From a virus (Duplodnaviria; Caudoviricetes), in the IMG/VR virus record IMGVR_UViG_3300028886_000051: a DNA stretch of 64,000 nucleotides; one strand, 5' to 3'. Positions 4,990 to 26,524 of the stretch are shown here, piece by piece. Made by a program: the position numbers and the translations under genes. The notes under the pieces are model-generated. The model was not told the DNA's origin. It was given only the letters and a program-made list of their open reading frames with translations, and did no database searches. The number at the start of each line of letters is the position of its first letter. Positions within the stretch are counted from its first letter, which is position 1.

Positions 4990-5058
4990 GAGAATATTAA
5001 TACGAAAGGAGCGAGAGATTTGCTGCAGCATTAAATCTGGATTTGCTCTGAGTAAGAA

Positions 5059-5820
5059 ATGTTAGAGATTAACAAAATATACAATGAAGATTGCCTCGAA
5101 GGTATGAAAAAGATTGATGATAAGTCAATAGATTTTATCTTCACAGATCTTCCGTTTTCAACAACCCAGAATTCATGGGATGTGTTAATTCCATTCGAGC
5201 CATTATGGAAACAATACGAGAGAATCATCAAAGATAATGGTTGTATTGCATTATGGGCGCAGTCGCCATTTGATAAGAGACTTGCTTGTAGTAATGAAAA
5301 ACTATATCGCTATGAATGGATTATCGAAAAGACCAAAGCAACTGGTCATCTAAATGCTAAGAAAATGCCTATGAAGGCACACGAAAATGTCTTGATTTTC
5401 TATAAGAAACTCCCTACATACAATCCGCAAATGACAGAAGGACATACACCTGTTCATTCTTATACAAAGCATACAACAGATGGTAGCTGTTATGGTGCTA
5501 CAAAGACTGGTATTTCAGGTGGTGGCAGTACACAAAGATATCCAAGAGACGTTCTACAGTTCAAGTGGGACACTCAGAAAAGTAGCTTGCATCAGTGCCA
5601 AAAGCCTGTTGAAGCGTGTGAGTATTTTATTAAAACCTATACCAATCCAGGAGATTTAGTTCTTGATTCATGTGCAGGAAGTTGTACAACTGCAGTTGCA
5701 GCTTTGAACACAGGTAGAAAATACATATGTTTTGAGAAAGACAAGGATATTTTTGAGGTTGGAAGTAAGAGAGTGGCTGAGTATATTAGTCAAGATTTAT
5801 TAATGAGTGCAACTAAATAA
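5059..5820 (+). CDS. N6-adenine/N4-cytosine DNA methyltransferase (beta class)
   Basis: DCLEGM, DLPF (motif IV variant), HQCQKP, VLDSCAGS. Confidence 0.88.
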   Translation: MLEINKIYNEDCLEGMKKIDDKSIDFIFTDLPFSTTQNSWDVLIPFEPLWKQYERIIKDNGCIALWAQSPFDKRLACSNEKLYRYEWIIEKTKATGHLNAKKMPMKAHENVLIFYKKLPTYNPQMTEGHTPVHSYTKHTTDGSCYGATKTGISGGGSTQRYPRDVLQFKWDTQKSSLHQCQKPVEACEYFIKTYTNPGDLVLDSCAGSCTTAVAALNTGRKYICFEKDKDIFEVGSKRVAEYISQDLLMSATK

Positions 5821-5890
5821 GAGAATAAGAATAATGAAAGGAGACGAGGTTCGTGTACACAAGAAGGAATTCCTTACTCCAAGTAATTAA

Positions 5891-6622
5891 ATGGTATATC
5901 AAGGAAGTAAAAACAGATTGGCAAAATTTTTAGTGCCAATTATTCAGAAGTATATTGATGATAATAATATCAAAACTTACATAGAGCCTATGGTTGGTGG
6001 AGCTAATCTTATTGATAAGATTAAATGTGACAAAAGAATTGGAGCAGATATTAATGAGGAATTGATTGCTTTGTTAAAATATGCTCAGACAGACAATAAT
6101 TTATCTATTGCGCCTGAAGTATGTACATTTGAACATTACGCAGATGTTAGAGAAGATAGAAAACATGGAACTCATAAGTACTCACCAGAATATATTGCAT
6201 TGATTGGATATATGGCAAGCTATGGTGGTAGATACTTTGATGGCGGTTATGGTAGAAATTCTGATGACAGTTCTGTATACAAGTCAAGATTTGATAATTT
6301 CAAAGAGCAAGTTCCAAACTTGAATGATATAGAATTTACATGTTGCGATTACAACGATTTCGCAGACTATAAAAATTGTCTTTTCTATTTTGATCCACCT
6401 TATAAGGGAACAAAACAGTATTCTAAACAGTCTATTGATTATGATTCTTTTTACGATTTTCTTCGTAAACTTTCAGAGAATAATATAGTGTTGGTAAGTG
6501 AATATAATATGCCTGATGATTTTACTTGTATTTGGCAGAAAGAGCGTAAGGTGTTGCAGAAGTCAGATAGGGTTACAGGTGAAAAAGCAGTAGAAAAGTT
6601 GTTTATAGTTGATAAAAACTAA
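5891..6622 (+). CDS. Dam/D12-class adenine methyltransferase
   Basis: YQGSK, EPMVGG, FDPPY. Confidence 0.88.
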   Translation: MVYQGSKNRLAKFLVPIIQKYIDDNNIKTYIEPMVGGANLIDKIKCDKRIGADINEELIALLKYAQTDNNLSIAPEVCTFEHYADVREDRKHGTHKYSPEYIALIGYMASYGGRYFDGGYGRNSDDSSVYKSRFDNFKEQVPNLNDIEFTCCDYNDFADYKNCLFYFDPPYKGTKQYSKQSIDYDSFYDFLRKLSENNIVLVSEYNMPDDFTCIWQKERKVLQKSDRVTGEKAVEKLFIVDKN

Positions 6623-6767
6623 AAGGAAATTTTGGTTTCTTGGCTTATCACGAAAACTATACAATATTTATGGACAAACAAGAGAATATAACAATGTAAT
6701 TACAATTAAAGAAAGGAAAAACGTTCACATGTGAGTAAAGCTGCGCAGCTACTATCGGTGAACAAAT

Positions 6768-7640
6768 TTGAAAAATACATATATTAAATCGCCTCTAAAT
6801 TATGTCGGAGGCAAGTATAAACTGTTACCACAGATTATACCCCTTATACCAAAAGATATTAATACATTTGTAGATTTATTTGGTGGTGGATTTAATGTTG
6901 GGATTAACATTGAAGCAAAGCATTTGGTTTACAATGATATTTGTAAACAGGTGGTAGATTTATTGGAACATTTCTACAATAATGATTCTGAGTATATTCA
7001 TAATATGATTTTAAAAACCATATCTGATTTTGGATTAAGCAGGTCTGATCTTAATGGTTATGAAGCATATGGATGTGAGTCAAGTAAAGGTCTTGGCGAA
7101 TATAATAAACCTAAATACTTTAAATTAAGAAAAGAATACAACTCTAATCCTGATTGGATTAAATTCTATACACTTATAACGTGTTCGTTTAGTAATCAGA
7201 TACGATTCAATTCTAAAGGTGAATTTAATATGCCTTATGGAAAACGTGATTATAATATTTCCCTACAAGAAAAATTAAAGACTTTTGTTGATGAAATGCA
7301 TAAAAAAGACATTCAATTTTGGAATAAAGATTTTAGAGAATGTAATTTTTTTGCAGACGATTTTATATATGTTGATCCACCATATTACAACTCGGTTGCT
7401 ACTTATAATGAAAATGGCGGTTGGTCAGAACAGGACGAGAGAGATTTGTTAAGTGTGTTAGATGTTGTGGACAAGCATGGCAGATTTGCACTAAGCAACA
7501 ATCTTAAATATGATAATCCGTTATTAGATGAATGGAAGAATAAATATAACGTTCATTATCTAAATGGTGATTATAGCAACTGTAATTATCAGAAAAAGGA
7601 CAAGAGTGCCGATTGTGAGGTATTAATCACAAATTATTAA
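6768..7640 (+). CDS. Dam/D12-class adenine methyltransferase
   Basis: NYVGGK, DLFGGG, RFNSKGEFN, VDPPY, EVLITNY. Confidence 0.9.
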   Translation: MKNTYIKSPLNYVGGKYKLLPQIIPLIPKDINTFVDLFGGGFNVGINIEAKHLVYNDICKQVVDLLEHFYNNDSEYIHNMILKTISDFGLSRSDLNGYEAYGCESSKGLGEYNKPKYFKLRKEYNSNPDWIKFYTLITCSFSNQIRFNSKGEFNMPYGKRDYNISLQEKLKTFVDEMHKKDIQFWNKDFRECNFFADDFIYVDPPYYNSVATYNENGGWSEQDERDLLSVLDVVDKHGRFALSNNLKYDNPLLDEWKNKYNVHYLNGDYSNCNYQKKDKSADCEVLITNY

Positions 7641-7644
7641 AATC

Positions 7645-7687
7645 TCAACCTCTGAAACGCCTTAAAATCAAGGCTTTCAGAGGTTGA
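7645..7687. repeat. Motif-B inverted repeat AAASCCTT-N6/7-AAGGSTTT; related copies at 4496-4515, 18762-18802, 26570-26600, 26681-26705, 46707-46737
   Basis: tcaacctctgaaacgccttaaaatcaaggctttcagaggttga. Confidence 0.7.
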
Positions 7688-7900
7688 AAAAGCAAAGGAA
7701 AACCACGTTTCCTTCGAGGAGGTGATTGATTGGATACATCGTGTGAAACTTGTAAATGTAACACCTGTAAGATGAATGAAAATGGTGGCATTTATGGTGG
7801 ATGTTTTGATTGTGAAGATTGCAAAGAACAAGATTTACACTGTGAAGATTGTTCAATGTATGAATATGACAAAGATAGAATGAGTAATTAGGAGAAATTT

Positions 7901-8404
7901 ATGGGTAAATCATTAGAATTTGTAAAAGAACGAATTACATCAGGTCAGTGCAATGGCATGGAGAATAATAAATATGAATCCATGATTGAACAAGATATAC
8001 GAGAGTTATTTACGGTTGTTAATTACACCAAAAATGGAACAATTTTAGCAGATGTACCTTATCTTAAAGGCGACAAACCTTATTTTAATGTGATTATTAA
8101 GCATGATCCAGATGCAGATTTTGAATATTTCACAATGCAGCGTTGCAATTGTGATGGAACGTTTGTATTCTTTCAAGATTTAATGGGTGAGTGCATAGAT
8201 AAAATGATTCATCTTAAAACCTGTAATGTAAATAAGGAGATTCCAAAAGATTTAACTGGATATTCTATTATTTATACGGTTGGAGATTTTGTATTAGCGG
8301 AAGAGTTTGGAGATGAATTTGCAACCAAAGAAAAGCCTTGGATGCAGAGTAGATTCACCGCTATGTTGCCAATTAAGTTTGATATAGTGAAGAATGGAGA
8401 ATAA
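7901..8404 (+). CDS. Hypothetical protein
   Basis: ORF with SD. Confidence 0.7.
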   Translation: MGKSLEFVKERITSGQCNGMENNKYESMIEQDIRELFTVVNYTKNGTILADVPYLKGDKPYFNVIIKHDPDADFEYFTMQRCNCDGTFVFFQDLMGECIDKMIHLKTCNVNKEIPKDLTGYSIIYTVGDFVLAEEFGDEFATKEKPWMQSRFTAMLPIKFDIVKNGE

Positions 8405-8672
8405 CAATATGAGAGCATATGAATTACGACAACATGACGTAATTTCCTATTATCCTCCACAACCACACAAACAGGAATATAAACTTGGAGAATACATTTC
8501 TATTGATGAACTAGCTGAAGCAATGTTTGGTTCACCTGCTTTAAGATTAGATAGAGATAAAAATGAGGACAAGATACTTCAAGTTATAGAAATAAAATAT
8601 GTGAAATTTCCTTGGTGGAAGTTTTGGAAGAGAAGAAAATATGTTGAAGAATATCATTTAGAAGTTATGTAG
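8394..8672 (+). CDS. Hypothetical protein
   Basis: ORF; likely start at 8409. Confidence 0.6.
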   Translation: MENNNMRAYELRQHDVISYYPPQPHKQEYKLGEYISIDELAEAMFGSPALRLDRDKNEDKILQVIEIKYVKFPWWKFWKRRKYVEEYHLEVM

Positions 8673-8684
8673 GTAGGTGAGAAT

Positions 8685-8894
8685 ATGTTTCAAAAATCAG
8701 AAAAACAGAAAATATGTGATTGGGTTGCTGATGTAGTGCAACATAATATTCAAATTCTCAATAAATTATCAGAAAAGAAAACACCACAAGACATTGAGGT
8801 TATTGAGAGTAATGGTAAGAAGTATATTGCATTGGATGATGTACATAAATTACTCGATGATAGATTTGAGGAACATAGATTATTAGGAGAATAA
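8685..8894 (+). CDS. Hypothetical protein
   Basis: ORF with SD. Confidence 0.6.
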   Translation: MFQKSEKQKICDWVADVVQHNIQILNKLSEKKTPQDIEVIESNGKKYIALDDVHKLLDDRFEEHRLLGE

Positions 8895-9083
8895 CAATAT
8901 GAAAAGATACAAATTAACCAGAAGTCCTAACCCAGAAACTCATGCATCTGGCGAAGTAATATTTATAAAAGATGAAAATGGTAATGAGCTTAATGTCGGA
9001 TTTAGCGATCAATGTGATGCATTTGATAAGAGTGTCACCGCACACTCGTGACTTCAGTCATGAGTTAGGTGACACAATATAAA

Positions 9084-9281
9084 TCATTCAATAAACTCAA
9101 TTATATCTTCAATTTTACAATGAAAATATTTACATATGCTGTCTAATGTAGACATTGAAATATATTCATTTTTGGATATTTTTGCAAGAGTATTCATACT
9201 CATTCCAGTTGCCTCACGAAGTTGAGTTTTTGTCATATCTTTTTCAACTAATAATCTTAATAATGGTTTATATGAAAACAT
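9084..9281 (-). CDS. XRE/Cro-C1 HTH regulator
   Basis: SYKPLLRLL...TLAKISKNEYISMSTLDSICKYFHCKIEDI; SD AAGGAGGTG. Confidence 0.85.
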   Translation of the reverse strand: MFSYKPLLRLLVEKDMTKTQLREATGMSMNTLAKISKNEYISMSTLDSICKYFHCKIEDIIEFIE

Positions 9282-9303
9282 AATATACACCTCCTTTATT
9301 TAG

Positions 9304-9392
9304 ATTATAACATAAAAGATATTGTAGTCAATATATAATATATAGAAAACTATATAAAATATGTTGACAAAATATATAGATAATGGTATATT
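9304..9392. promoter_or_regulatory. Back-to-back sigmaA promoters for the HTH gene (-) and tnpB (+)
   Basis: TTGACA(9364)-17-TATATT with extended TG; TTGACT-16-TATAAT on minus strand; repeated TATATAGA. Confidence 0.7.
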
Positions 9393-9436
9393 ATATATAG
9401 AAACACATATATTTAATTTAGAAAGGAGGATATTTT

Positions 9437-10774
9437 ATGAATATATTTTCATCTTATAAAGTCAAAATCAAACATTATAATCATATATTTGAACAAACAG
9501 TTGAGATATACAGAAATGCAGTATCCTTCTTTATAAATGTTTGTGATAAAGAATGGGATGTATTAGAATCATTAAAGAATCTTGAAAGATGTAGAAAGCT
9601 TGAAGAATTAACTTTACAGACAAAGAAAAATCAAAATCCTAAATATGATTTTAATGAAAAATTCTATAAGATGCCATCATATCTAAGACGTTCTGCAATA
9701 AATACTGCTACTGGATGTTATTCATCCTATTATTCCAATTTAAAGAATTGGGAAGAAAAATCTATTGGTAGTAAACCAAGATTGCAGTTAGACAGAAATG
9801 TTATGCCCACTTTATATAAAGATAATATGTATATTCGTACAGATGATAATACTGCAAAAATTAAAATCTTTCATAGAAATGATTGGGTTTGGCTAGATGT
9901 AGCATTAAATAATCAGGATGTAAAGTACATTCAAAATCATTGTAAATTCAAAAAGGAATATGTACCTACATTAAAGAAACAAGGTAAGTGTTGGTATTTA
10001 GTATTTCCTTTTGAAGATAAAGTTGAATTTCAAAAAGTAGATATTCAAGACCAAATAATATGTGCAGTAGATTTAGGTCTTAACAATAATGCTACTTGCT
10101 CTATAATGCAGTCTGATGGAACTGTCGTTGGAAGAAAATTTGTGAATCTTGCAACAGAAAAAGACCATTTATATAAAGCATTAAATAGAGTTAAGAAAAC
10201 ACAACAAAATGGCGCAAGAAGATGTCCTACTCTTTGGAAACATGTAAATGATTTGAATACTGATATTAGCAGAAAGACAGCAAAAGAGATTATAGATTTC
10301 GCAGTTTTATATAATGCTGATGTAATCGTATTTGAACATTTGGATACACAAGGAAAGAAAAATGGTAAAGAAAAACAGAAACTTGCGCTTTGGAGAAAAC
10401 AAGAAATACGAAAACTTGTAGAACATAAAGCACATATATTAGGAATTAGGATTAGTCATATATGTGCATGGAATACAAGCAGGCTGGCGTTTGACGGTTC
10501 TGGAAGAGTAGAAAGAGGTACTTATATTCAAAATGGAGTTGAAAAATACAATTACTCTATTTGCACTTTTCCAAATGGTAAACAATATCATTGTGACTTA
10601 AATGCCAGTTATAATATCGGAGCAAGATATTTTATACGAGAATTTTTAAAATCCGACTCAGTGATGAGAAGGTTGCCTAGTCAGACAAAAGATTCTGATT
10701 ATGGTACGGGAACAACACGCACCTTGTCTACGTTAATTAGGCTTAATGCGGATTTATGTGGCAATGCTGTATAA
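9437..10774 (+). CDS. tnpB: TnpB RNA-guided endonuclease
   Basis: RuvC triad AVDLG, VFEHL, CDLNASYNI. Confidence 0.9.
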   Translation: MNIFSSYKVKIKHYNHIFEQTVEIYRNAVSFFINVCDKEWDVLESLKNLERCRKLEELTLQTKKNQNPKYDFNEKFYKMPSYLRRSAINTATGCYSSYYSNLKNWEEKSIGSKPRLQLDRNVMPTLYKDNMYIRTDDNTAKIKIFHRNDWVWLDVALNNQDVKYIQNHCKFKKEYVPTLKKQGKCWYLVFPFEDKVEFQKVDIQDQIICAVDLGLNNNATCSIMQSDGTVVGRKFVNLATEKDHLYKALNRVKKTQQNGARRCPTLWKHVNDLNTDISRKTAKEIIDFAVLYNADVIVFEHLDTQGKKNGKEKQKLALWRKQEIRKLVEHKAHILGIRISHICAWNTSRLAFDGSGRVERGTYIQNGVEKYNYSICTFPNGKQYHCDLNASYNIGARYFIREFLKSDSVMRRLPSQTKDSDYGTGTTRTLSTLIRLNADLCGNAV

Positions 10775-11033
10775 TATCTGAGTTAAGAACTGTATGGTAG
10801 ATAAGTAATCCGATTTCTAAAGAATTGGAAGCACGCCACTTTAGTGGTGTGAGTGTTCACTGATGCCGAAACCATGTGTGAGTTTATGAGAGTTTATTCA
10901 AATAATGATGTTTTTGGCGAATCGAAGTTAGCTTTTGTACCTGCTAATATTAAACAGTTATCACATAAAAAATATGCACAGATGTATATTGACAAGTTAC
11001 AGAGTATTGTAGATCAGATGGAGGAATAAAACT

Positions 11034-11258
11034 ATGGGTAAAGTTGTAGATATGAGTAATTTTGATCCGTTATTTGATAATTTGGAAAAGTACGTGAATA
11101 AACAAGGGTGTACTCTTGGTAAAGATGCTGAGAGGTTACAAGAATTATTACATTCAATTCAGTATTGTTATATACATGGAGTATTAACAGAGAGTCAAAA
11201 TGAATCAGCTTGTAAAAAATTTAGAAAACAGTTTCAGAAAGCTTTATATGAGAAGTAA
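11034..11258 (+). CDS. Hypothetical protein
   Basis: ORF with SD; stop overlaps site at 11257. Confidence 0.65.
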   Translation: MGKVVDMSNFDPLFDNLEKYVNKQGCTLGKDAERLQELLHSIQYCYIHGVLTESQNESACKKFRKQFQKALYEK

Positions 11259-11293
11259 GAATGAAGCATTTCCTTAGGAAAGGAGAACAATAA

Positions 11294-11569
11294 ATGGAGA
11301 CATTTTCAATAGTAGAAAATATAAATGTGGATAAGTTGAATACGAAAATTGCAGAATTTGTATACAGAGAAGGGCATGATCCTTATATATTTGCAAATAA
11401 AGAGACACTTGATGCATTAATTAAGCCAATTGAACAAGCTGAAATGTTTGCAAATTCTTGGGGAATTGGACTTGTAAGTTCATATAAGGGTTGTCTTACT
11501 GGTATGTATCGTGGGAATAAAATGTTCAGAGATGATACATTAAAATTCGGAGAGATTGAGTTGAGATAA
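11294..11569 (+). CDS. Hypothetical protein
   Basis: ORF with SD. Confidence 0.65.
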   Translation: METFSIVENINVDKLNTKIAEFVYREGHDPYIFANKETLDALIKPIEQAEMFANSWGIGLVSSYKGCLTGMYRGNKMFRDDTLKFGEIELR

Positions 11570-11591
11570 GAGAATAAATACATATAAAGAG

Positions 11592-12089
11592 GTGATTATT
11601 ATAAAAGTTATTAAGAATAATTTTAACAAAATCAATTTGAATAAAAACATTGAAGAAAAATCTAAAAAAATACATATCTTCTGTGAACATTGTGATTCAG
11701 AATTAGAAGTATCTAAAGAAGATACTCACATTGGATGGCTTGGTGCAGCATTTGTTAAGTGTCCTTGTTGTGGACAAGAATCAATGGTTGATGAATTAGA
11801 AGGAATTACATTAACAAAAGACAATATTGATTATCCTATACATTTCAACAGAACTAATAAGGATTTAAGAAATGTTGTTGAAGTGCAGAAAGATAAAGTT
11901 ATTGAAGAAATTCAGAGAGGTATTGATTATTTTAGAGCACATAAAGATGAATTCTATTGGTACACATGTCATGGAGACTTGTTTTTGATTATATTCAGAT
12001 ATGAAGGCGATGAAGAATACTCTATATTGGTCACAAGAGATTTTTATGAGACAGATATTCCTTTTGAAAAGGAGGATTATAATGACTGA
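11592..12089 (+). CDS. Zinc-ribbon hypothetical protein
   Basis: CEHC...CPCC. Confidence 0.65.
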   Translation: MIIIKVIKNNFNKINLNKNIEEKSKKIHIFCEHCDSELEVSKEDTHIGWLGAAFVKCPCCGQESMVDELEGITLTKDNIDYPIHFNRTNKDLRNVVEVQKDKVIEEIQRGIDYFRAHKDEFYWYTCHGDLFLIIFRYEGDEEYSILVTRDFYETDIPFEKEDYND

Positions 12090-12411
12090 TTTTGAAACAT
12101 GGCTACATGATTTTGGATATGAGCATATTTTTCGCATGTTAGAAATTCGTAGACCAGGACAATATACTCCTTATGAGATGGATAAGAAATTTTCGGATCA
12201 GTCGCTATATTTAGATAATCACTTTAGACATATTCAGATTAAAGAAGCTATTGAGCTTCCTGATAAAGATATTCTGATTGGATTCAGAGAAATATATGAT
12301 AGTGAAGATCTTGAAAAGGAATGGGAAGAATCGGTTATCTATTATAAGAAGTTGAGTGAGATTGAACTTACATATTTTCCAGATGACGATAAAATTGAGA
12401 ATTGGGAGTGA
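12082..12411 (+). CDS. Hypothetical protein
   Basis: ATG with AGGAGG SD. Confidence 0.65.
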   Translation: MTDFETWLHDFGYEHIFRMLEIRRPGQYTPYEMDKKFSDQSLYLDNHFRHIQIKEAIELPDKDILIGFREIYDSEDLEKEWEESVIYYKKLSEIELTYFPDDDKIENWE

Positions 12412-17309: not shown

Positions 17310-17454
17310 AGGTTAAAATAACAAGAATCCAATCTTTCATTGGAAAATTTTGTAAAAATAACAACATAAATGGTAGTTGCAAATGCCATAAAATAAAAGA
17401 AAGGAAAAGATAATCCTAGGTAAAAGGTTATGTACATAACACTCAGGTATATGA

Positions 17455-18744
17455 GTGAACCCAATTTACAATGAGTATCTTACATTCTTGCGAGATACGA
17501 CCAAACAGCCATTAGAAGATCTGAAAGAAGGCTACTTTTGGCTAGATAAATCAATTATTAAAGGATTTGATAAGCAAGGAAATGAACATAAATTCTATCG
17601 AGTGAAGATTGAAAATTCGCTTGAAAGATTGGATTGCATCAAATTGAAATCCTACGACAATATATCAGATGTGGATTTAGCAAGTTGGCAAGATTTAATC
17701 GAATTACAGAAAGAACATCTAACGCAGCTTGAAGCTGATTCATTAGAACTAATCAAAGAAAAGACAGAGAAATTTAATACATATACTTCAATAATTCCTG
17801 TTTCTATGGGTAAGGATTCAATGCTTACCTGTCATCTAGTCAGAAAATTATATCCAGAAACCAAAGCAATATTCAATAATACTTCACTTGATTGTGCTGA
17901 TACATACAGAATGGTTAAGACTTTCCCTAATTGTGAGATTATGAATCCCGAGAAGGGATTTTACCAGTATATTAAAGAACAGAATATTATATTTAATAGA
18001 ATTTCTCGTGGTTGTTGTAGAATCTTCAAAGTAGGTGAAATGGTTAGGCGTTTAGACCATAACAAACCATATTTAATGTGGATGGGTATGCGAAACGAAG
18101 AATCTAATACTAGAAGCGGATATCAAGATGAATGGATAAATGAGCAGGAATGGGGTAAGACCTGTTGGCAAGGTATTCTTCCTATTAGAAAATGGTCAGA
18201 AATGGATGTATGGCTTTATACAATTTGGAAGAATGTGCCTATTTGCTCAAAATATAAAAAGGGATATGCTCGTCAAGGCTGTAATATTGCGTGCCCATTC
18301 TATACGAAGTCTACTTGGATTTTGGACAAGTATTGGTATCCACAGGCTTATGAGAGATGGAGAAACATCTTAAAAGAAGACTTCATTGCAAATAAGAAAT
18401 GGATAATCATGAACTGCACCATTGATGAATATCTCACACAGGCTTGGAATGGTGGAACATTCAGAGATGAACCAACCGATGAGGTTATTCAGGAATTTGC
18501 TGAGTACAATGGATTGAATGTTGGTGACACAAAAGTAGCAAGACAATATTTTAATAAGTATTGTGATGAGTGTGAAAAGAGAATAAAAGATAAAACAACG
18601 CTGGCAATGAATATGAAATTCCATGGAAGAGATGTGTCGAAGTTCTTGTGTAAGAAATGTTTCAAAAAATTATACGAGATGGATGATGATAAGTGGAATA
18701 TGTATGTTGAGTCATTCAAAAGAGACGGTTGTGCGTTGTTTTAA
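17455..18744 (+). CDS. PAPS-reductase-family (PP-loop, DndC-like) protein with C-terminal Zn finger
   Basis: VSMGKDS, RGCCRIFK, GMRNEES..RS, PIRKWSEMDVW, RQGCNIACP. Confidence 0.8.
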   Translation: MNPIYNEYLTFLRDTTKQPLEDLKEGYFWLDKSIIKGFDKQGNEHKFYRVKIENSLERLDCIKLKSYDNISDVDLASWQDLIELQKEHLTQLEADSLELIKEKTEKFNTYTSIIPVSMGKDSMLTCHLVRKLYPETKAIFNNTSLDCADTYRMVKTFPNCEIMNPEKGFYQYIKEQNIIFNRISRGCCRIFKVGEMVRRLDHNKPYLMWMGMRNEESNTRSGYQDEWINEQEWGKTCWQGILPIRKWSEMDVWLYTIWKNVPICSKYKKGYARQGCNIACPFYTKSTWILDKYWYPQAYERWRNILKEDFIANKKWIIMNCTIDEYLTQAWNGGTFRDEPTDEVIQEFAEYNGLNVGDTKVARQYFNKYCDECEKRIKDKTTLAMNMKFHGRDVSKFLCKKCFKKLYEMDDDKWNMYVESFKRDGCALF

Positions 18745-19238: not shown

Positions 19239-19433
19239 ATGAAGGGTAAATATAGAGGCTGCGACATAGAAGTAGAACGAGGTGGTACAGAGTTCTTAAC
19301 CTTTGCAGTATTCGATGATGGATATGAAGTGACAAGTGGATTTTCTGAAAGTAGTGACACTGTGAGAGATTATTTCAGTTATATGAAAAGTGTAGTAGAT
19401 GACTATAAAGAACATCCAGAAGATTACGAATAG
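19239..19433 (+). CDS. Hypothetical protein
   Basis: ORF with SD. Confidence 0.6.
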   Translation: MKGKYRGCDIEVERGGTEFLTFAVFDDGYEVTSGFSESSDTVRDYFSYMKSVVDDYKEHPEDYE

Positions 19434-19445
19434 GAGAATAACATT

Positions 19446-19754
19446 ATGAAGATTATAGCAGGTGATTATTTCGGTAAAAATATTCAGTTTGTGTGTAGAT
19501 GCTGCAACTGTGTATATGAAGTTGAATCAAAGGATGATTGGAATATTCGAATGGAGAGTCCATATCGTTTTGGTTATTTAATCCCTACTTACAATGTTAT
19601 GTGTCCTAATTGCGGTCATGAAGAATATCTTGGCTGTGATCCAGACGATTTAAAAGGAACGGAACTGGAAAACCTACATTGTCCTTGGATTCCATTATTG
19701 AAGAAGAGAGAAGATTGGAATAAACGATATAGGGTTGAGCCAATAAGAGAATAA
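19446..19754 (+). CDS. Zinc-ribbon hypothetical protein
   Basis: CRCC...CPNCG. Confidence 0.6.
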   Translation: MKIIAGDYFGKNIQFVCRCCNCVYEVESKDDWNIRMESPYRFGYLIPTYNVMCPNCGHEEYLGCDPDDLKGTELENLHCPWIPLLKKREDWNKRYRVEPIRE

Positions 19755-19773
19755 ACATTTGTGAGGTGAGCAG

Positions 19774-19974
19774 ATGAAAGCATATAAATGTGATATTTGT
19801 GGTGAATATTGCGATTATTCTCATGATATCTATGGTAACATAATGGTGCGAACTAAAAAGAAAAATTTTAAGAAAATGAAATACATAAACGAATTATGTG
19901 ATAGTTGTTTTGAGGATTTACAGAGATATATGCAAGATAAATATTTTGAGCATATGGATAAATATTCAGAGTAA
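19774..19974 (+). CDS. Small zinc-finger protein
   Basis: CDICG...LCDSC. Confidence 0.6.
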   Translation: MKAYKCDICGEYCDYSHDIYGNIMVRTKKKNFKKMKYINELCDSCFEDLQRYMQDKYFEHMDKYSE

Positions 19975-20017
19975 AGATTCGTTTCTTTTGAAATTTTAAC
20001 AGATAGGAGTGATATAA

Positions 20018-21148
20018 ACGAGGGTATATAAAGATAAACAGTATCTTATTTTTGATTATGAAGATGGACGCACTGTAAAATATGATTTCGCAACGAAGAC
20101 CGCTATTGGAATTAAGGGTAAACCAGTAAAGAATCTGTGTAGTCAGCTAAGTGGGTTTACTCTAAATGAGTTATTTGATTGTTGTGATGATGAAAAGTAT
20201 GCGAAGTTTTTACGATTTATTAGAAATTCAGAAACATACTCATATTCAATAAGCAACATAGGAACAATTCTTGATAGAGTTCCAAGATATGATAGATTTG
20301 AACAAATTTTCTCAGCAGGATTTGATGACATTATCAAAGATGGTTATCGGTTCAAGTATTCTATAAATGAGATTCCAAAATCTCTAATCAAATTATGTCG
20401 TAAATATCCCATTAAATTATCCAATAATACTGTTAAGTATTATAAAGAAAATCAAGATGCACATTACATAGCTTATAACTTGGATTATCTAAGTTTAGAT
20501 TCTGATGATATTTATATCGTTTGGAATACAGAAACATGGGATAGAGTTGATGGTGCTTGTATTTATTATTCATTTTTTAATAAATTAGTGAATGACTTTG
20601 GATATAATGCAAAGGATTTATGGTTGTATCTGGATAGAATCAAGACATTTGAGGCAGTTGAAGATATGGGTTTCTTAATTCGTGAATTGTACGATTACGC
20701 TGATATGATGAATCAACTTAGCCCTAAATTTGACAAGTACCCAAGACATTTTTTAACTACACATAGAATTGCTTGTAGAAATTACGATCGAATGAAGAAA
20801 GAGTTCTCAGAAGAGTTATTTAAAAAGAGAATAAATAAACAGTACGAATGCTCTTTTGGTGATTACATATTCATTTATCCAGATTCTACACAGGATATAA
20901 AAGATGAGGCTGCTTCACAAAACAACTGCGTAGCTTCATACATAGATAAGGTTATTGACGGTAAGTGTCACATTCTTTTCTTGAGAAAAAAGAGTAAGCC
21001 AGACGAGAGTTTGGTAACGATTGAAGTAAGAAATAATCATATTGTACAGGCTAGACGAAGATTCAATGATGATGTAACAGCAGAGGATCAGAAAGCTATT
21101 GATGCATTTAACAAAAAGTTTGCAAATAAGAAGGATAAAGTAGCATGA
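20018..21148 (+). CDS. PcfJ-like protein; probable ACG start
   Basis: Frame open from ACG at 20018 behind AGGAGTGA; EAASQNNCVASY, ILFLRKK, TIEV, IVQAR motifs. Confidence 0.75.
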   Translation, partial: TRVYKDKQYLIFDYEDGRTVKYDFATKTAIGIKGKPVKNLCSQLSGFTLNELFDCCDDEKYAKFLRFIRNSETYSYSISNIGTILDRVPRYDRFEQIFSAGFDDIIKDGYRFKYSINEIPKSLIKLCRKYPIKLSNNTVKYYKENQDAHYIAYNLDYLSLDSDDIYIVWNTETWDRVDGACIYYSFFNKLVNDFGYNAKDLWLYLDRIKTFEAVEDMGFLIRELYDYADMMNQLSPKFDKYPRHFLTTHRIACRNYDRMKKEFSEELFKKRINKQYECSFGDYIFIYPDSTQDIKDEAASQNNCVASYIDKVIDGKCHILFLRKKSKPDESLVTIEVRNNHIVQARRRFNDDVTAEDQKAIDAFNKKFANKKDKVA

Positions 21149-21585
21149 TTAAAGGAGATCGAATTAAATTAGTTCGTAAGATGGGTGTGTTTGATAACAT
21201 TGGTGAGATTTGTGAAGTGACTGATATTCAGGAAGGTGGAGTAATCTGCTTTAAATTCGGTGGCTGCCATCTTGGTTGTATGTCATATGACGAGTATGAA
21301 AAGTATTTTGAAAAGGTTGAGACACCTGTAAAGAAACCTTGGAGCGATTGGAGTTTGGCACACAAACTTACTTTTATTGATATTAAGGGCGATGAAAAGA
21401 CTATTAAATATCAGTATAGAGATAATGGTAAGAGAGTCCAGGTTAGAAGTGGTGCTTTGAAAGCAGGTTCATCTTGTTATGACGAGGACGAATTTAGTCT
21501 TAGTAGTGGTTTGGAACTGGCAGAGATGAGATTAGTCGTAAAATACCTTGATAATCAGGTTAAGTCGATTGCAAAGGCGATGTAA
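21145..21585 (+). CDS. Hypothetical protein
   Basis: Translationally coupled ORF. Confidence 0.7.
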   Translation: MIKGDRIKLVRKMGVFDNIGEICEVTDIQEGGVICFKFGGCHLGCMSYDEYEKYFEKVETPVKKPWSDWSLAHKLTFIDIKGDEKTIKYQYRDNGKRVQVRSGALKAGSSCYDEDEFSLSSGLELAEMRLVVKYLDNQVKSIAKAM

Positions 21586-21606
21586 GGATAAAGCGGAGGA
21601 ATTCTT

Positions 21607-21873
21607 ATGACAAGAACGTATTGTGATGTATGTAACAAAGAAACAAGTTCGGTAGCAGAATATATGTTACCAAAGCGTGTGCCGAAATATGCGACAGACA
21701 AAGCGGGTAATAAAATAATGCCATTTGGAGAGACCGTTAAACCAGTAAAAAAGGAGTTGTGTCCAAGATGCTCTCGTTTATTAAATGTATTTATAGATGG
21801 TTATTTAGCAGCTTTGAGTACGGAAGATGATAAATATACAATTCAATTTAATCTTATTCACGAAAGAGAATAA
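21607..21873 (+). CDS. Zinc-finger hypothetical protein
   Basis: CDVC...LCPRC. Confidence 0.65.
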   Translation: MTRTYCDVCNKETSSVAEYMLPKRVPKYATDKAGNKIMPFGETVKPVKKELCPRCSRLLNVFIDGYLAALSTEDDKYTIQFNLIHERE

Positions 21874-22003
21874 CAACATATAGGAAGTATTCTGAAAGAG
21901 TAATCAATCAGATAGTGGTCACAGGTTCATGACCAACATACATAAAAGTCTATGTAAAGAGAAATGGTTCTCATGAATTATCGGTTTCCTTTGGAGGTGA
22001 CAA

Positions 22004-22282
22004 GTGTTTAATATTGGTGAATTGGTTATAGAAAAAATACAGAGTTATGAATTATGGACAGATGTCCCTAGCTATGAAAGGCTAGATGTTGTACATTGCG
22101 TATTATGTTTAATTCCTAATCCTTATGATTCGATAAGAGAATATTTAAAAAGAAGGAAAGAACATAATAAAAAATATAAAGAATTTTGGTCTAATGCAGA
22201 TAAAGTAATTTTCAATAATGATAGAAGTATGTACAGAGCTGCGATTATGACAAAATTAGCAGTGAATGAAGAGGCGAAGTAA
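22004..22282 (+). CDS. Hypothetical protein
   Basis: GTG with GGAGGTG SD. Confidence 0.6.
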   Translation: MFNIGELVIEKIQSYELWTDVPSYERLDVVHCVLCLIPNPYDSIREYLKRRKEHNKKYKEFWSNADKVIFNNDRSMYRAAIMTKLAVNEEAK

Positions 22283-22519
22283 ATGATAACACCACCAGTA
22301 ATACAAAGTTTAACAAACGAAAATACAATATTGGCAAGTGCTTCTATAGAAGATTTGCAAGAATATAAGAAAAATGCTTGTAAAATTCTTAGAAGTCAGA
22401 CGCAGTGTGCTACTGCAAAAATCGTAGAAGAATTGATTGACCAGGAAATTATGAATAGAAAAATTATTGAAGAATGGAATAAAATCTATGAACAATTTCC
22501 TGAACATGTAGGAGTGTGA
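22283..22519 (+). CDS. Hypothetical protein
   Basis: ORF. Confidence 0.6.
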   Translation: MITPPVIQSLTNENTILASASIEDLQEYKKNACKILRSQTQCATAKIVEELIDQEIMNRKIIEEWNKIYEQFPEHVGV

Positions 22520-22944
22520 TACCAATAGAATTAGAGAATAATCCAAAACAGATTGAAGAAAATCTTAAAACTGTACTCACATTAGAATATATGGGAATTC
22601 ATATCGAAGACACAAAAGAGCAAGGTTTTAAACAATTATATTATTTCTCAGTGCCAGAAAGATCTACACTAAAAACCGAATCTGCAAAAGAACAAGCTGA
22701 GACAGCAGATGATTTAATTCAAGTTGCGAAAGCTACTTTGACAGAAATGATTCTCGATTCGTGCAAATCTGAATTTGACGATGAAGATGAAGAATTTTAT
22801 AAAGATGTAGAGAATAATATCTCAGACTATGCTTTGTTCTTTGCAAAAGTCAGAAAAGGAGAAGTATGGAATAAGGAAATGGGTAAAGCTGCCGTTAATA
22901 AAGCGGTTGAACTGTTAAAAAACCTATCGTACAAACAGGTTTAG
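22516..22944 (+). CDS. Hypothetical protein
   Basis: ORF. Confidence 0.65.
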   Translation: MIPIELENNPKQIEENLKTVLTLEYMGIHIEDTKEQGFKQLYYFSVPERSTLKTESAKEQAETADDLIQVAKATLTEMILDSCKSEFDDEDEEFYKDVENNISDYALFFAKVRKGEVWNKEMGKAAVNKAVELLKNLSYKQV

Positions 22945-23074
22945 AAGGAGAATAACTATATGTAGTCGATTGGTAAAATTTATATACTATATATAATGCC
23001 ATAAAAGAGATAAATCACAATATATAGTAATAAAAGTACCAAGAAATTTCGATTTTTTGTGAGGAGGTGAAATC

Positions 23075-23509
23075 ATGGAGAAAGTAATTAAATATAGATG
23101 TTCTAAATGTGGAGAATTATTTGATACACCTGAAGATGCTTTAGCACATGAAATAAGACATGAAAGAATTGAGAAGGCTAATGAGATGCTTGATGAAGGA
23201 TATACATTAAAGCAAATCAATGACGAGTGTGAGATTTGGGATTCTGTGCCAGAACATTTAGAGAATGTAAATAAAGATAACTGTTTTAAAATTAGCTATT
23301 GGCAATGCTGCGACAAACCCGCATATCAAATTATGCATATCTTTTTTGATGGAAGAGTAAATGTAAGAGGTTGTGGTTCGTGGAGTGGATATTATGGCAA
23401 TTGCCTTAGATTAGATAGTCGTGATTTGGAAGATCCAAGACCAAAGGAAGAGTTATTTGTAGATGGTAGATATACAAGTAGATGGGAATTATATTTGGAG
23501 AATATATAA
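23075..23509 (+). CDS. C2H2-like zinc-finger hypothetical protein
   Basis: YRCSKCGELF...ALAHEIRH. Confidence 0.65.
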   Translation: MEKVIKYRCSKCGELFDTPEDALAHEIRHERIEKANEMLDEGYTLKQINDECEIWDSVPEHLENVNKDNCFKISYWQCCDKPAYQIMHIFFDGRVNVRGCGSWSGYYGNCLRLDSRDLEDPRPKEELFVDGRYTSRWELYLENI

Positions 23510-23524
23510 GTGGAGGTAATTATA

Positions 23525-23785
23525 ATGACAAGTTACGAATTTGAAAAAGCTGCAAAGAATGCAGTGATTCAGACATTGAGTGAAAACATTAGTATTGACC
23601 AGTTGGATCTCGTGTGGTTTGCACATGAGTTAGGTTATAAGAAGTGTACTATTTGGGGACAGCCGATGGGTAACAGATATGCAGAAGTTACTTATAACAG
23701 AGATAAAGATGAGATGTATGTAGATATTTATCAGAAGATTATCAACAATAAGATTTCGTCTGATGAGTTCAATTTTGAAGCGTAA
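23525..23785 (+). CDS. Conserved phage protein (DUF6275-like)
   Basis: VWFAHELG...YAEVTYNRDKDEMYVDIY. Confidence 0.65.
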   Translation: MTSYEFEKAAKNAVIQTLSENISIDQLDLVWFAHELGYKKCTIWGQPMGNRYAEVTYNRDKDEMYVDIYQKIINNKISSDEFNFEA

Positions 23786-23818
23786 AGGAGAATAACATAT
23801 TGAAAGAGAGGTACATAT

Positions 23819-24667
23819 ATGCCAGTACAGGATGATTTAGGCTGTCGCATGAAGACATTTTATGAGCAGATTCCTAAGACAAAATTAATGAGAAGGTGTC
23901 CAGTTGCTATCCGCATTGACGGAAAGGCGTTTCATACATTCACAAGAGGATTCCAGAAACCGTTTGATGAAGTGCTAATTAAGTCTATGCAGGAAACAAT
24001 GAAATACTTATGTGAGAATATTCAAGGCTGTGTTCTTGGTTACACGCAGTCAGATGAGATTACATTGATCCTTGTTGATTATAAGAAACTTACATCTTCA
24101 GCTTGGTTTGATTATGAAGTGCAGAAGATTTGTAGTATTGCGGCAAGTATGGCTACGATGGCATTTAATAAATTCTTCAGAGATAATGTTGGTGACTATT
24201 TATATGAGAATTATGACGATCAGTATTTAGCTGATTATATTAAAATTTTACAGAATGCAGTTGACAAAGGTGCAATGTTTGATGCTCGTTGTTTCAATAT
24301 TCCAAAAGAAGAAGTAACAAATCTCGTATATTGGCGACAACTTGATGCTTCTCGTAACTCAATTCAGATGGTAGGTCAGGTTTGTTTCTCACACAAAGAA
24401 TTACAGAATAAGTCATGCAATGATATTCAGGATATGCTTATTACTCAGAAAGGTATTAACTGGAACGATTTACCGACTTATCAGAAGAGAGGAAGCTGTT
24501 GTGTAAGAAATAAGATTGTTATTGAAACTGACAGTGTTACAGCAACTGCACAGTTAAGAGATACTTCTAAATCAGAAAATGAGTGGATTATTGATACAGA
24601 TATCCCTATTTTCAAGGGCGAAGGTAGAGAATATATTGATAGATTGGTATTTATTGGTGAAGAGTAA
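23819..24667 (+). CDS. Thg1-like protein (tRNA-His guanylyltransferase / 3'-5' polymerase family)
   Basis: RIDGKAFHTFT, YTQSDEI, FDARCF, WRQLDASRNS. Confidence 0.9.
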   Translation: MPVQDDLGCRMKTFYEQIPKTKLMRRCPVAIRIDGKAFHTFTRGFQKPFDEVLIKSMQETMKYLCENIQGCVLGYTQSDEITLILVDYKKLTSSAWFDYEVQKICSIAASMATMAFNKFFRDNVGDYLYENYDDQYLADYIKILQNAVDKGAMFDARCFNIPKEEVTNLVYWRQLDASRNSIQMVGQVCFSHKELQNKSCNDIQDMLITQKGINWNDLPTYQKRGSCCVRNKIVIETDSVTATAQLRDTSKSENEWIIDTDIPIFKGEGREYIDRLVFIGEE

Positions 24668-24687
24668 ATATAAAGGAGAATATACAT

Positions 24688-24909
24688 ATGAGTAATTTAA
24701 AGCAAAAATTAACAAAAGGTGGCGCAACAGCAGTTATTGTCATTACAATTTTGGCATTATGTTATGGACTTAGTTGGATTGTTACATGTGGAATAATCAA
24801 GCTTATTACAATGTGCTTTGGTTTGACATTTAAATGGTCTATTGCGACTGGTATTTGGTTGATTATCTGCATTTTAAAGTCAGTTTTCAATGTAACAGTA
24901 AAGAAATAA
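24688..24909 (+). CDS. Small membrane protein
   Basis: Two hydrophobic segments. Confidence 0.65.
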   Translation: MSNLKQKLTKGGATAVIVITILALCYGLSWIVTCGIIKLITMCFGLTFKWSIATGIWLIICILKSVFNVTVKK

Positions 24910-24961
24910 AAGCCGAGTAAACTGACATTTCTTGACCAAATTGGAGACAAGGAGGAATAAA

Positions 24962-25249
24962 ATGTGTTCTGATACAGTAATTGATTTATTAAGCATATTT
25001 TTAATATTGAGTATATTATTTGCAGGATTCTATATAGCCTACAAAGCGGATATCGAAAATATATCTGTTCTCAATTCTATAAAGAATTTTATTATTGATT
25101 TATTTAAAGATAGAAATATTTTAGGTAAATTTCTTTCAAGTGTTGTATTTTTATTATCTATTCCAGGCATGTTATATATGATTCTTTTAGCAATAGTTGA
25201 TGTGTTCATAAAGTTATTTATAAAAATATGGAAGTTAGGAAATAGATAA
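24962..25249 (+). CDS. Small membrane protein
   Basis: ATG with AGGAGG SD; two TM segments. Confidence 0.6.
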   Translation: MCSDTVIDLLSIFLILSILFAGFYIAYKADIENISVLNSIKNFIIDLFKDRNILGKFLSSVVFLLSIPGMLYMILLAIVDVFIKLFIKIWKLGNR

Positions 25250-25291
25250 AATTTTATATAAATAAGAGAATATATAGTTGGAGGTGAGAAT

Positions 25292-25597
25292 GTGAGTATG
25301 GTGAATTTAAATTTACACACAATTATATTAATTGTGTTATGTCATTTAATTGGTGATTATGTATTACAATGTGATTTTATTGCACAGACAAAAGGGAAGA
25401 ATTGGTATCATTTATTTGTACATTGTGCATTGTATTGTGTTCCATTCTTAATAGTATTTGGTTGGACATGGCAGTTAGCAGCAATTTTTATTTCGCATCT
25501 GATTATTGATCCGTTGAAAGCAAGATGGAATAAGATTACATACACTACAGACCAGACATTACATTATATAATCGGAATGCTTTATCTTATTGGTTAA
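25292..25597 (+). CDS. DUF3307-like membrane protein
   Basis: HLIGDYVLQ, HCALY, SHLIID, DQTLH. Confidence 0.75.
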   Translation: MSMVNLNLHTIILIVLCHLIGDYVLQCDFIAQTKGKNWYHLFVHCALYCVPFLIVFGWTWQLAAIFISHLIIDPLKARWNKITYTTDQTLHYIIGMLYLIG

Positions 25598-25699
25598 TCA
25601 ACCAAACAATTCTCAATAAAAATGAAAATCAAATAGAGAATAAGTAAGTGAAAGGAGTGAGTGGCAGCCTTAAAGATATATCGCTCTGAGTAAATTACA

Positions 25700-26524
25700 A
25701 TGTACGAACCAGTAATTAAATGGAGTGGAAGTAAGAGAAGTCAGGCAGAGAAAATTTTAACATTTTTCCCAAAAGAGATTGATACATATTATGAACCATT
25801 TTGCGGTGGAGCTTCAGTTTTAAGAAGACTTTTCGATAGCGATATACGAGTTAAGCATTATGTATGTAGTGATTTGAATAGTGGGCTGATTGACTTATGG
25901 AATGAAATCATTAACAATCCGTTAGAAGTTTCTACCTATTACAAGAAGCTTTGGAATGAATTAAATGTGGATGATGATAAGCAACGAAAGAAAGAATATT
26001 TTGCAAATGTTAGAGACAGATATAACAAAGAACATAATCCTTTAGATTTTATGTTTATTATGAGAACAACAACCAATGGTATGCCAAGATATAATCGCAA
26101 TGGCGAATTTAATAATTCATTTCATGTGACTAGAAATGGTATTATTCCTGAAACATTTGAGAAGATAATTTTTGAATGGAGTCAATTATTGAAACAGAAT
26201 GATGTTAAATTTATCAGTTGTTCGTATGAAGATATAAAACCAACAGAGAATGATTATATGTATCTTGATCCACCTTATGCAAATACAAAAGGTATGTATT
26301 ATGGAACTATTGATTATGAAAAATTTTGGGATTATTTAAGACAGTTACCATGCAGATATGCTTTATCTTTTGATGGCAAGAGTGGTGATATAGATAATAC
26401 TTGGAATGTTCCTAAAGACATATATACAACACATGAGTATTTACTAAGTGGTAATAGTAGTTTTAAACGTACAATTGGCAAATCGAACGACAGCATTGTT
26501 TACGAAAGTTTGTATGTAAAGTAG
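25700..26524 (+). CDS. Dam/D12-class adenine methyltransferase
   Basis: KWSGSK, EPFCGG, RYNRNGEFN, LDPPY. Confidence 0.9.
   Translation: MYEPVIKWSGSKRSQAEKILTFFPKEIDTYYEPFCGGASVLRRLFDSDIRVKHYVCSDLNSGLIDLWNEIINNPLEVSTYYKKLWNELNVDDDKQRKKEYFANVRDRYNKEHNPLDFMFIMRTTTNGMPRYNRNGEFNNSFHVTRNGIIPETFEKIIFEWSQLLKQNDVKFISCSYEDIKPTENDYMYLDPPYANTKGMYYGTIDYEKFWDYLRQLPCRYALSFDGKSGDIDNTWNVPKDIYTTHEYLLSGNSSFKRTIGKSNDSIVYESLYVK

Follow-up and report, generated by a model that had tools for sequence, protein, structure and literature searches.

Introduction

Phage DNA methyltransferases and enzymes of the 3′-phosphoadenosine-5′-phosphosulfate (PAPS) reductase fold are front-line countermeasures against restriction, and their control is largely unknown. 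In the 64,000-nt stretch of DNA analysed here (the window), taken from the minus strand of a 145,752-bp IMG/VR phage record (IMGVR_UViG_3300028886_000051), five genes of these two kinds follow leaders in which the strong Shine–Dalgarno (SD) sequence stands 42–50 nt from the start codon, with palindromic sequence in between. The question raised by this locus is what so long an interval does between a ribosome-binding site (RBS) and its gene, and how it is tied to DNA-modification genes. We favour, with confidence about evenly divided, the answer that the five leaders are modular translation-initiation cassettes specific to this gut phage clade, which gate translation through structure and double as recombination linkers.

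The closest cultured relatives by DnaE are Clostridioides phages, at 43% identity, and a Firmicute host is likely because SD usage is strong throughout the genome. A megablast search of the methyltransferase island against cultured phages gave no matches; protein searches with four of the proteins yielded about 170 related IMG/VR loci (L numbers below), mostly from ~150-kb phages. We found no earlier description of such leaders in the published literature, and new here are the slot order of the leaders, the finding of one and the same enzyme behind two leaders, the tally of symmetric substitutions, and the contrast of G–U-bearing stems with perfect dyads.

Results

Every long open reading frame (ORF) was tabulated together with its upstream 75–80 nt, both for the window and for the whole 145,752-bp record, and a far SD was scored as an 8-nt match to the anti-SD complement 42–50 nt from the start, with the nearby SD weak or absent. 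In both tables a far SD preceded five genes only, starting at 5059, 5891, 6768, 17455 and 25700, confirming the preliminary description of this DNA, made from sequence, which had noted a strong SD 42–50 nt upstream of these genes, unlike their neighbours. All five spacings lie past the functional range between SD and start, as expected of a split RBS. An in-frame stop lies 0–6 nt 5′ of each of the five starts and the N-termini look complete, so that the start codons are correct and no upstream shift is possible.

Pfam assigned the 5059 product to the N6/N4 methyltransferases (PF01555), the 5891, 6768 and 25700 products to the D12 class (PF02086) and the 17455 product to PF01507. That all DNA-modification genes share the leader held within the window, but the whole-record scan placed a sixth such gene, a C5 methyltransferase (PF00145) without a far-SD leader, ~3 kb upstream of the window. 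The Pfam match of this gene (G000:C1:124896–126128) begins at model position 22 and falls into two pieces, and its start and SD are not obvious; in one relative (L043:149–637), the N-terminal part of a C5 methyltransferase stands behind a leader of the type studied here. With five of the six modification genes among ~200 ORFs carrying the leader, the hypergeometric p is ~2e-9, if ORFs are taken as exchangeable. The leaders and their genes have the following features in window coordinates.

4989–5058, + strand: leader module of methyltransferase 1, beginning with the AGAGAATA motif and ending just before the ATG; 97–100% identity in 66 loci
5004–5011, + strand: strong SD GAAAGGAG of the 5059 leader, 47 nt from the start
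5009–5015, + strand: 5′ arm GAGCGAG of the 5059 outer stem, overlapping the SD; pairs with 5042–5048, including two G–U pairs, in the minimum free energy (MFE) fold
5042–5048, + strand: 3′ arm TTTGCTC of the 5059 outer stem (MFE fold), followed by TGAGTAAGAA and then the ATG
5021–5030, + strand: perfect dyad TGCTGCAGCA at the apex of an AGATTT/AAATCT stem (5016–5021 with 5033–5038); core invariant in all relatives
5059–5820, + strand: N6/N4 DNA methyltransferase, PF01555
5820–5890, + strand: leader module of methyltransferase 2; SD at 5836–5843, its GGAG (5840–5843) pairing with CTCC (5877–5880)
5853–5860, + strand: dyad GTGTACAC; GTGCGCAC in L005
5864–5875, + strand: dyad AAGGAATTCCTT; AAGAAATTTCTT in L009
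5891–6622, + strand: D12-class adenine methyltransferase, PF02086
6681–6767, + strand: leader module of methyltransferase 3; SD AGAAAGGA at 6710–6717
6723–6728, + strand: 5′ arm GTTCAC of the 6768 outer stem, pairing with 6758–6763; GTACC/GGTAC instead in L013 and L020
6758–6763, + strand: 3′ arm GTGAAC of the 6768 outer stem, 4 nt 5′ of the TTG
6725–6734, + strand: dyad TCACATGTGA; TCACCGGTGA in L174
6739–6750, + strand: dyad AGCTGCGCAGCT; ACCTGCGCAGGT in L169, GCTTGCAAGC in L174
6768–7640, + strand: D12-class adenine methyltransferase with a TTG start, PF02086
17370–17389, + strand: hairpin ATGGTA/TGCCAT with the conserved loop GTTGCAAA, 5′ of the SD; two compensatory pairs and a U–G to U–A change
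17398–17405, + strand: SD AGAAAGGA of the PAPS-reductase leader, 49 nt from the GTG start
17415–17420, + strand: dyad CCTAGG, the sole CCTAGG of the genome; ACTAGT or TCTAGA in relatives
17427–17440, + strand: dyad GTTATGTACATAAC; GTAATGTACATTAC in L097
17440–17457, + strand: hairpin CACTCA/TGAGTG burying the GTG start in the consensus fold; probability that the start is unpaired, 0.01
17455–18744, + strand: PAPS-reductase-fold gene, PF01507, phrog_424
25635–25699, + strand: leader module of methyltransferase 5; SD at 25650–25657; stem GAGTGG (25659–25664) with TCGCTC (25681–25686), GAGCGG/CCGCTC in L025
25675–25682, + strand: dyad GATATATC; GAAATTTC in relatives
25700–26524, + strand: D12-class adenine methyltransferase, PF02086

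The same design recurs across the clade. A screen of all ORFs in 80 related loci flagged 143 with a far SD, 139 of which fall into leader families of this one design, and more families were found in other loci, giving at least 10 among the ~170 related loci (named here by the window gene, as in 6768 type, or by an Ldr number). In each family the strong SD is followed by a 5′ arm, a perfect dyad or two, and a 3′ arm; next come up to ~13 nt of mostly A/T-rich sequence (none in Ldr4), then the start codon. The proteins behind classified leaders are all DNA methyltransferases (PF01555, PF02086, PF00145, phrog_799, phrog_11619) or PAPS reductases (phrog_424).

The leaders are modules whose homology ends at the start codon. 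From AGAGAATA to the ATG, the near-identity of the 5059 leader in the 66 loci is independent of the upstream gene and persists even where the enzymes are 63–67% identical; in a 50-nt identity profile of the 5059 locus, the leader scores 98–100%, the first 50 nt of the gene 90–96% and the middle of the gene 48–70%. The start codon belongs to the module, TTG being used by all four proteins behind the 6768-type leader. Along the array, the reading frames vary and the leaders keep a conserved order (Ldr9, Ldr6, Ldr4, 5059 type, 5891 or 25700 type, 6768 type), with flanking scaffolds common to the 5059- and 25700-type leaders and likewise to the 5891-type and Ldr6 leaders. In cultured phages outside the clade (Enterococcus phage IME-EF4 and MT836958), homologous methyltransferases use an ordinary SD 7–8 nt upstream, indicating that leader and enzyme family do not move together.

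The AGAGAATA motif at the head of the modules occurs at 4989, 5820, 6681 and 25635 and at ~25 other places, and precedes the far SD by 3–25 nt in almost every leader; it counts 53 copies on the coding strand versus 17 on the other, stands before several other genes as well, and is frequent inside genes. The motif may be a phage promoter element. A further variation of the array is seen in seven relatives (L014, L019, L023, L025, L039, L071 and L072, at ~3000), in which a second N6/N4 methyltransferase separates the leader from the 5059 homologue, which begins at a TTG right after the upstream frame and is thus coupled or fused to it.

The arms of the outer stems are family-specific in sequence, yet always complementary. 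They contain G–U pairs, which are valid on the coding strand only, and compensatory changes convert GTTCAC/GTGAAC to GTACC/GGTAC and GAGTGG/TCGCTC to GAGCGG/CCGCTC; in the hairpin at 17370–17389, ATGGTA/TGCCAT is likewise replaced by AAGATA/TATCTT. Because G–U pairs combined with compensatory changes are the signature of RNA structure, the outer stems appear to act as such. In the automatic MAFFT alignment the GTACC/GGTAC variant is out of place, which makes the compensatory count for the 6768 outer stem an underestimate. Covariation, which the preliminary description had named as a check, is therefore present in the outer stems among relatives, and the shared cis-acting device it proposed is borne out by conservation in ~170 loci, by this covariation and by occurrence there only before methyltransferase and PAPS-reductase genes.

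Predicted folds place the SD in different settings. The leaders' 80-nt initiation regions fold at −9.4 to −15.8 kcal/mol, versus −7.8 ± 3.2 for 51 ordinary regions of the same genome. In the 6768 type the SD is free, and the GTTCAC/GTGAAC stem, as anticipated from the single sequence, brings it to ~9 nt from the TTG by leaving 5 + 4 nt (9–11 nt for the type); in Ldr4, bridging makes the SD abut the start directly, and in the 25700 type it is borderline (1 + 13 nt here, 1 + 12 in relatives). In the 5059 type, 5891 type, Ldr6 and Ldr7, the GGAG of the SD lies within the stem, and its CUCC-like complement is 9–10 nt from the start. In the bridging families the SD has accessibilities of 0.96 and 0.67, and in the others of 0.28–0.47. 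Pairing of the SD by the outer stem had been assigned to three leaders; this stands for 5059 and 5891 but not for 25700, whose relatives favour the GAGTGG/TCGCTC stem adjoining the SD. In the predicted fold of the PAPS-reductase leader, the start codon itself is buried in a hairpin.

PAPS-reductase homologues of more distant members of the clade have other leaders, in which the SD is hidden or set apart by nested hairpins without perfect dyads. Type B leaders (L099, L103, L111 and others; ~1400–1500) pair an ordinary SD to an upstream CTCCTTTAAC across a covarying hairpin, and type C leaders (L106–L109; ~1400–1500) have nested hairpins, whose loops are not palindromic, separating a far GGAG from the ATG.

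Besides the outer stems, the inserts carry perfect dyads. The palindromes initially noted at 5021, 5853, 6739 and 17427 are exact; GGCAGCC at 25663, listed with them, is not palindromic, the true dyad of the 25700 leader being GATATATC at 25675–25682, and two dyads had been overlooked (AAGGAATTCCTT at 5864–5875 and TCACATGTGA at 6725–6734). Against a background in the window of 4.3 perfect palindromes of at least 8 nt per kb, in an AT-rich genome, seven lie within the 235 nt from SD to start, a ~7-fold enrichment (binomial p = 8.5e-5). Representatives of 10 leader families hold 15 palindromes versus 2.3 ± 1.5 in shuffles, and none of 5000 shuffles reached 15.

In the alignments of relatives, the inner dyads are kept perfect through their centres, and variants arise by symmetric double substitutions. 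Such variants comprise GTGTACAC/GTGCGCAC, AAGGAATTCCTT/AAGAAATTTCTT, TCACATGTGA/TCACCGGTGA, AGCTGCGCAGCT/ACCTGCGCAGGT and GAAATTTC/GATATATC; in the PAPS-reductase leader CCTAGG/ACTAGT/TCTAGA, and CCTATAGG, together with GTTATGTACATAAC/GTAATGTACATTAC; and also GCAGCTGC/GTAGCTAC, CCATATGG/TCATATGA and AAATGTACATTT/AAATCATGATTT. All 160 of 160 cells pair in the alignment of the PAPS-reductase leader, where four pairs changed on both sides and 0/500 shuffles match the score. The swaps are mostly transversions without a wobble intermediate, no G–T occurs in the dyads, and symmetry and covariation span 12–14 nt, outside any 4–8-bp restriction-type core. Imperfect dyads are few: most 5059-type leaders have an AAATC-TG-GATTT centre, L169 has a form of odd length, and Ldr6 has AAACGC-A-GCGTTT.

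A hairpin alone is insufficient to account for the dyads, because those of 6–8 nt cannot fold on themselves and the central four bases would be an unconstrained loop. The dyads are under a separate symmetry constraint of duplex type, distinct from that on the outer stems, and call for a reader of duplexes (double-stranded DNA or RNA–RNA), for quasi-palindromes to be corrected against a template, or for the two together. That they are duplex-read DNA sites also displayed in the folded mRNA, or else self-complementary loops that pair leader RNAs, is possible though rather unlikely. Two overlapping 12-nt perfect palindromes inside the 5059 gene (5680–5698; cores TGTACA and CTGCAG) were considered as a related element and rejected; they are broken in L058 and L069, lie within a 3′ block ~96–100% identical between divergent homologues, and were taken as coincidental.

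Whether the dyads encode the specificity of the enzymes bears on a proposal of the preliminary description, in which each enzyme reads its own site in the leader and the palindromes may predict specificities. Under such self-recognition feedback, the enzyme would bind or methylate its own palindrome, in leader DNA or in an RNA mimic, and thereby set its own expression. The dyads do resemble type II sites, some being hexamers avoided by the genome (CTGCAG 4 versus 21 expected; CCTAGG present once), and restriction-modification systems offer precedents in SsoII, EcoRII and CfrBI (references in PMC3874152). However, an identical 242-aa methyltransferase stands behind a 25700-type leader in L045 and a 5891-type leader in L064 with different dyads, the AATT tetramer common to both being absent from the other leaders of the enzyme family; an 89%-identical methyltransferase follows a third leader, again with different dyads; and methyltransferases of four unrelated families stand behind the 6768-type leader. 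Leader site and enzyme are thus not inherited together, and own-site reading is contradicted since one enzyme has two leaders and one leader has four unrelated enzymes. In addition, the CTGCAG dyad is invariant in the 66 loci, whereas the central part of the enzyme that follows, expected to be the target-recognition region, retains only 48–70% nucleotide identity; the 12–14-nt symmetry extends past any known core; and a PAPS-reductase-fold gene has the same leader design. The dyads are thus no guide to the specificity of the downstream gene, and we regard self-recognition feedback as extremely improbable. Solved methyltransferases are too distant from the array enzymes for specificity to be inferred by homology.

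A ligand-sensing RNA, also suggested at the outset, found no support: Rfam covariance models gave no gathering-score match in the window or in 12 related loci except one tRNA, and chance-level matches only at a permissive threshold (E up to 10). A sensor of S-adenosylmethionine or S-adenosylhomocysteine is argued against by the PAPS-reductase-fold gene, which shares the leader design. Over the whole record, and despite six modification genes, short palindromic restriction sites are very strongly avoided (observed/expected GGCC 0/78, CGCG 0/31, CCGG 9/46, GATC 150/468), and so are many hexamers, among them CTGCAG (4/21), TCTAGA (0/11.5), ACTAGT (1/13) and GGTACC (1/12). Several leader dyads coincide with avoided hexamers, and from these sequence counts a link of the dyads to restriction-modification in trans is possible.

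Elsewhere in the window, GAAA-N6-TTTC dyads number 10 versus 3.3 expected (6626–6639, 7698–7711, 26545–26558 and seven more). The copy at 7698–7711, with the spacer ACCACG, closes the methyltransferase island, and the ACCACG-spacer copy recurs after different reading frames in relatives, usually following a long hairpin with a 12-bp stem. The window also encodes a TnpB/Cas12f-like ORF (9437–10774; weak TNB-domain match) and a Thg1-like 3′–5′ nucleotidyltransferase (23819–24667).

Discussion

The leaders' architecture, conservation, covariation, modular swapping and gene-class specificity can be read directly from the loci, whereas an action on translation and its direction are what we infer. 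The single trait that all families share is a folded insert between the sole strong SD and the start, a position that is sensible only if the insert affects translation or the mRNA. The cassette extends from the AGAGAATA motif through the strong SD and a folded insert of ~30–40 nt to the start codon, and we propose that the outer stem closes the insert in the mRNA. In the 6768 type, the 25700 type and Ldr4, the SD would be left free and drawn to within ~9–14 nt of the start, forming a split RBS; in the 5059 type, the 5891 type, Ldr6 and Ldr7, the stem would pair the GGAG of the SD with its CUCC-like complement; and in the PAPS-reductase leader a hairpin would bury the start codon. The net effect would be low-level, structure-gated translation of DNA-modifying enzymes, while the cassettes would serve as slot-specific conserved linkers, behind which recombination could swap whole reading frames.

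Several points weigh against this reading. The families disagree on whether the SD is free or paired, so that a single mechanism is an assumption, and in the paired-SD families an opened stem still leaves the SD 42–50 nt from the start. Taken singly, the leaders do not fold significantly better than their dinucleotide shuffles (z = +0.1 to −1.9). The cassette model leaves unexplained that the dyads are perfect through their centres and that non-folding dyads of 6–8 nt are maintained. Finally, the link to modification genes could be historical, one ancestral slot having been duplicated, and not functional.

Other explanations start from the dyads. These could be duplex DNA sites, and possibly RNA hairpins too, for Aca-type dimeric regulators or for an array methyltransferase acting in trans, in keeping with their perfect centres, their lack of the G–T pairs tolerated in the outer stems and their mostly transversion double substitutions. 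The helix-turn-helix (HTH) proteins Aca2 and Aca1 bind both DNA inverted repeats and hairpins in 5′ untranslated regions (UTRs), and PAPS reductases are among Aca-regulated genes (PMC13551039). We nevertheless consider such sites unlikely, as ~30 different dyads without a common pattern would need many readers, Pfam detects no HTH or ribbon-helix-helix domain and no Aca-like gene among the ten small ORFs adjoining the arrays, and a DNA operator need not sit between SD and start. Alternatively, dyads displayed in loops may pair two leader RNAs as kissing or extended duplexes, such that translation or stability falls with transcript level and copy number is buffered. Covarying stems do close self-complementary loops (GTTGCAAA at 17376–17383 and the GCTGCAGC apex at 5022–5029), intermolecular pairing requires symmetry through the centre, and the design resembles retroviral dimerisation hairpins. 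We know of no precedent in phage mRNAs, however; moreover, such duplexes tolerate G–U pairs, yet none is seen in the dyads, and some dyads overlap stem arms rather than loops, and we hold RNA pairing to be very unlikely.

The far SD might instead serve something other than the enzyme's own start. It could drive a short upstream frame, with the enzyme made by termination–reinitiation or by ribosome-mediated unfolding: a start codon does follow the far SD by 3–13 nt in the 5059, 5891, 6768 and 25700 families and Ldr6, and in nearly all 25700 and Ldr6 variants a frame of 9–10 codons ends 5–7 nt before the start. The PAPS-reductase, Ldr4, Ldr9 and Ldr10 leaders have no such frame, however, its length ranges from 1 to 26 codons with stops from −36 to +43, and its ATG is lost in L169 and L171; being inconsistent across families, it was rejected as a unifying mechanism and has only a slim chance of being correct. 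As a 5′ stabiliser of the STAB-SD or polypurine kind, the far SD would hold a 30S subunit that blocks 5′-exonuclease, while the weak GAG, GGT or GGTGA near the start serves translation. Such weak SD-like triplets lie 9–14 nt from most starts, AGAGAATA, 3–25 nt 5′ of the SD, could be a promoter, in which case the RNA would begin with the SD, and precedents exist in the cryIIIA STAB-SD and the SP82 polypurine stabiliser (references in PMC3997798). This model does not require the narrow 42–50-nt spacing or the folded insert, though, a sigma-70-type scan found no promoter in the leaders, and we judge it quite unlikely. Equally improbable to us is that the leaders are mainly recombination linkers derived from one duplicated slot, their dyads an unselected by-product of template switching at quasi-palindromes. 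The mosaic identity profile with its sharp peaks at leaders, the conserved slot order and the scaffolds shared by the 5059 and 25700 types and by the 5891 type and Ldr6 speak for it, templated correction would yield symmetric transversion swaps, and the cassettes of T4-type phages offer a shuffling precedent (PMC2839356). It is opposed by the near-total conservation of ~70 nt despite a 35% difference between the phages' proteins, by the covariation of the outer stems and by the scarcity of imperfect dyad intermediates. Upstream frames, a 5′ stabiliser, trans-acting proteins and RNA pairing each fail to fit all families.

Whichever way the leaders act, they mark DNA-modification genes and can predict them, including families unrecognised by Pfam, one kind of leader being shared by 15 or more unrelated protein families. 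They point to common post-transcriptional control, and show how an anti-restriction array is remade when reading frames are exchanged behind initiation cassettes that stay in place. In the dyads a selective or mutational constraint is seen that goes beyond current models of RNA leaders. If duplex reading is true, all DNA-modification genes of the phage would share a dosage control that either needs no protein or acts in trans, and counter-defence genes would have a regulatory element of a new kind.

Comparison with known systems

Two candidate kinships were set aside. Direct reading rejects integron attC sites (RYYYAAC...GTTRRRY), since the arms here run GTT...AAC, not AAC...GTT, and differ in every family; and the 'PAGEV' motif, considered for a link to PAPS reductases, is in its paper a plasmid motif of Vibrionales.

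In acr-aca operons, 5′ UTR RNA motifs are bound by the HTH proteins Aca2 and Aca1, and translational repression has been proposed to answer rising gene copy number (PMC13551039). The likeness lies in leader hairpins on counter-defence genes, in symmetric DNA that is transcribed and in PAPS reductases among the regulated genes; unlike there, the dyads here vary between leaders and phages, so that no single reader fits. Autoregulation of type II methyltransferases (SsoII, EcoRII, MspI and CfrBI; references in PMC3874152) also places palindromic DNA 5′ of a methyltransferase gene, but there it is a promoter site of one enzyme, whereas the present leaders are not linked to particular enzymes and have their dyads between SD and start. 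Two elements that act on mRNA decay, the cryIIIA STAB-SD and a polypurine 5′ stabiliser in Bacillus phage SP82 (references in PMC3997798), share a strong SD-like sequence far from the start in a leader of a Firmicute or a phage; their distance is not fixed, however, and they have no folded, dyad-bearing insert.

The promoter–early stem-loop (PeSL) cassettes of T4-type phages combine a sigma-70 promoter with a stem-loop terminator and mediate modular shuffling (PMC2839356, PMC4122927). Both systems are short conserved intergenic cassettes flanking variable accessory genes, homology here ending at the start codon with a fixed slot order. Unlike PeSL cassettes, the leaders showed no sigma-70-type promoter or terminator in a scan of their + strand, and they occur only before DNA-modification genes, as translation-initiation regions to which the start codon belongs.

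In phage T4, genes 38 and 25 have split sites with SDs 22 and 27 nt from the start, bridged by a hairpin (Nivinskas 1999; Malys and Nivinskas 2009; reviewed in PMC3014915). Like the leaders described here, they have an over-distant SD and a fold backed by covariation and are confined to one phage clade; their hairpin shortens the spacing, as is predicted here for the 6768 type and Ldr4. By contrast, the present spacing is 42–50 nt, about half of the families pair the SD itself, hypervariable perfect dyads occupy the insert, and the whole forms a multi-family, interchangeable module on one class of genes.

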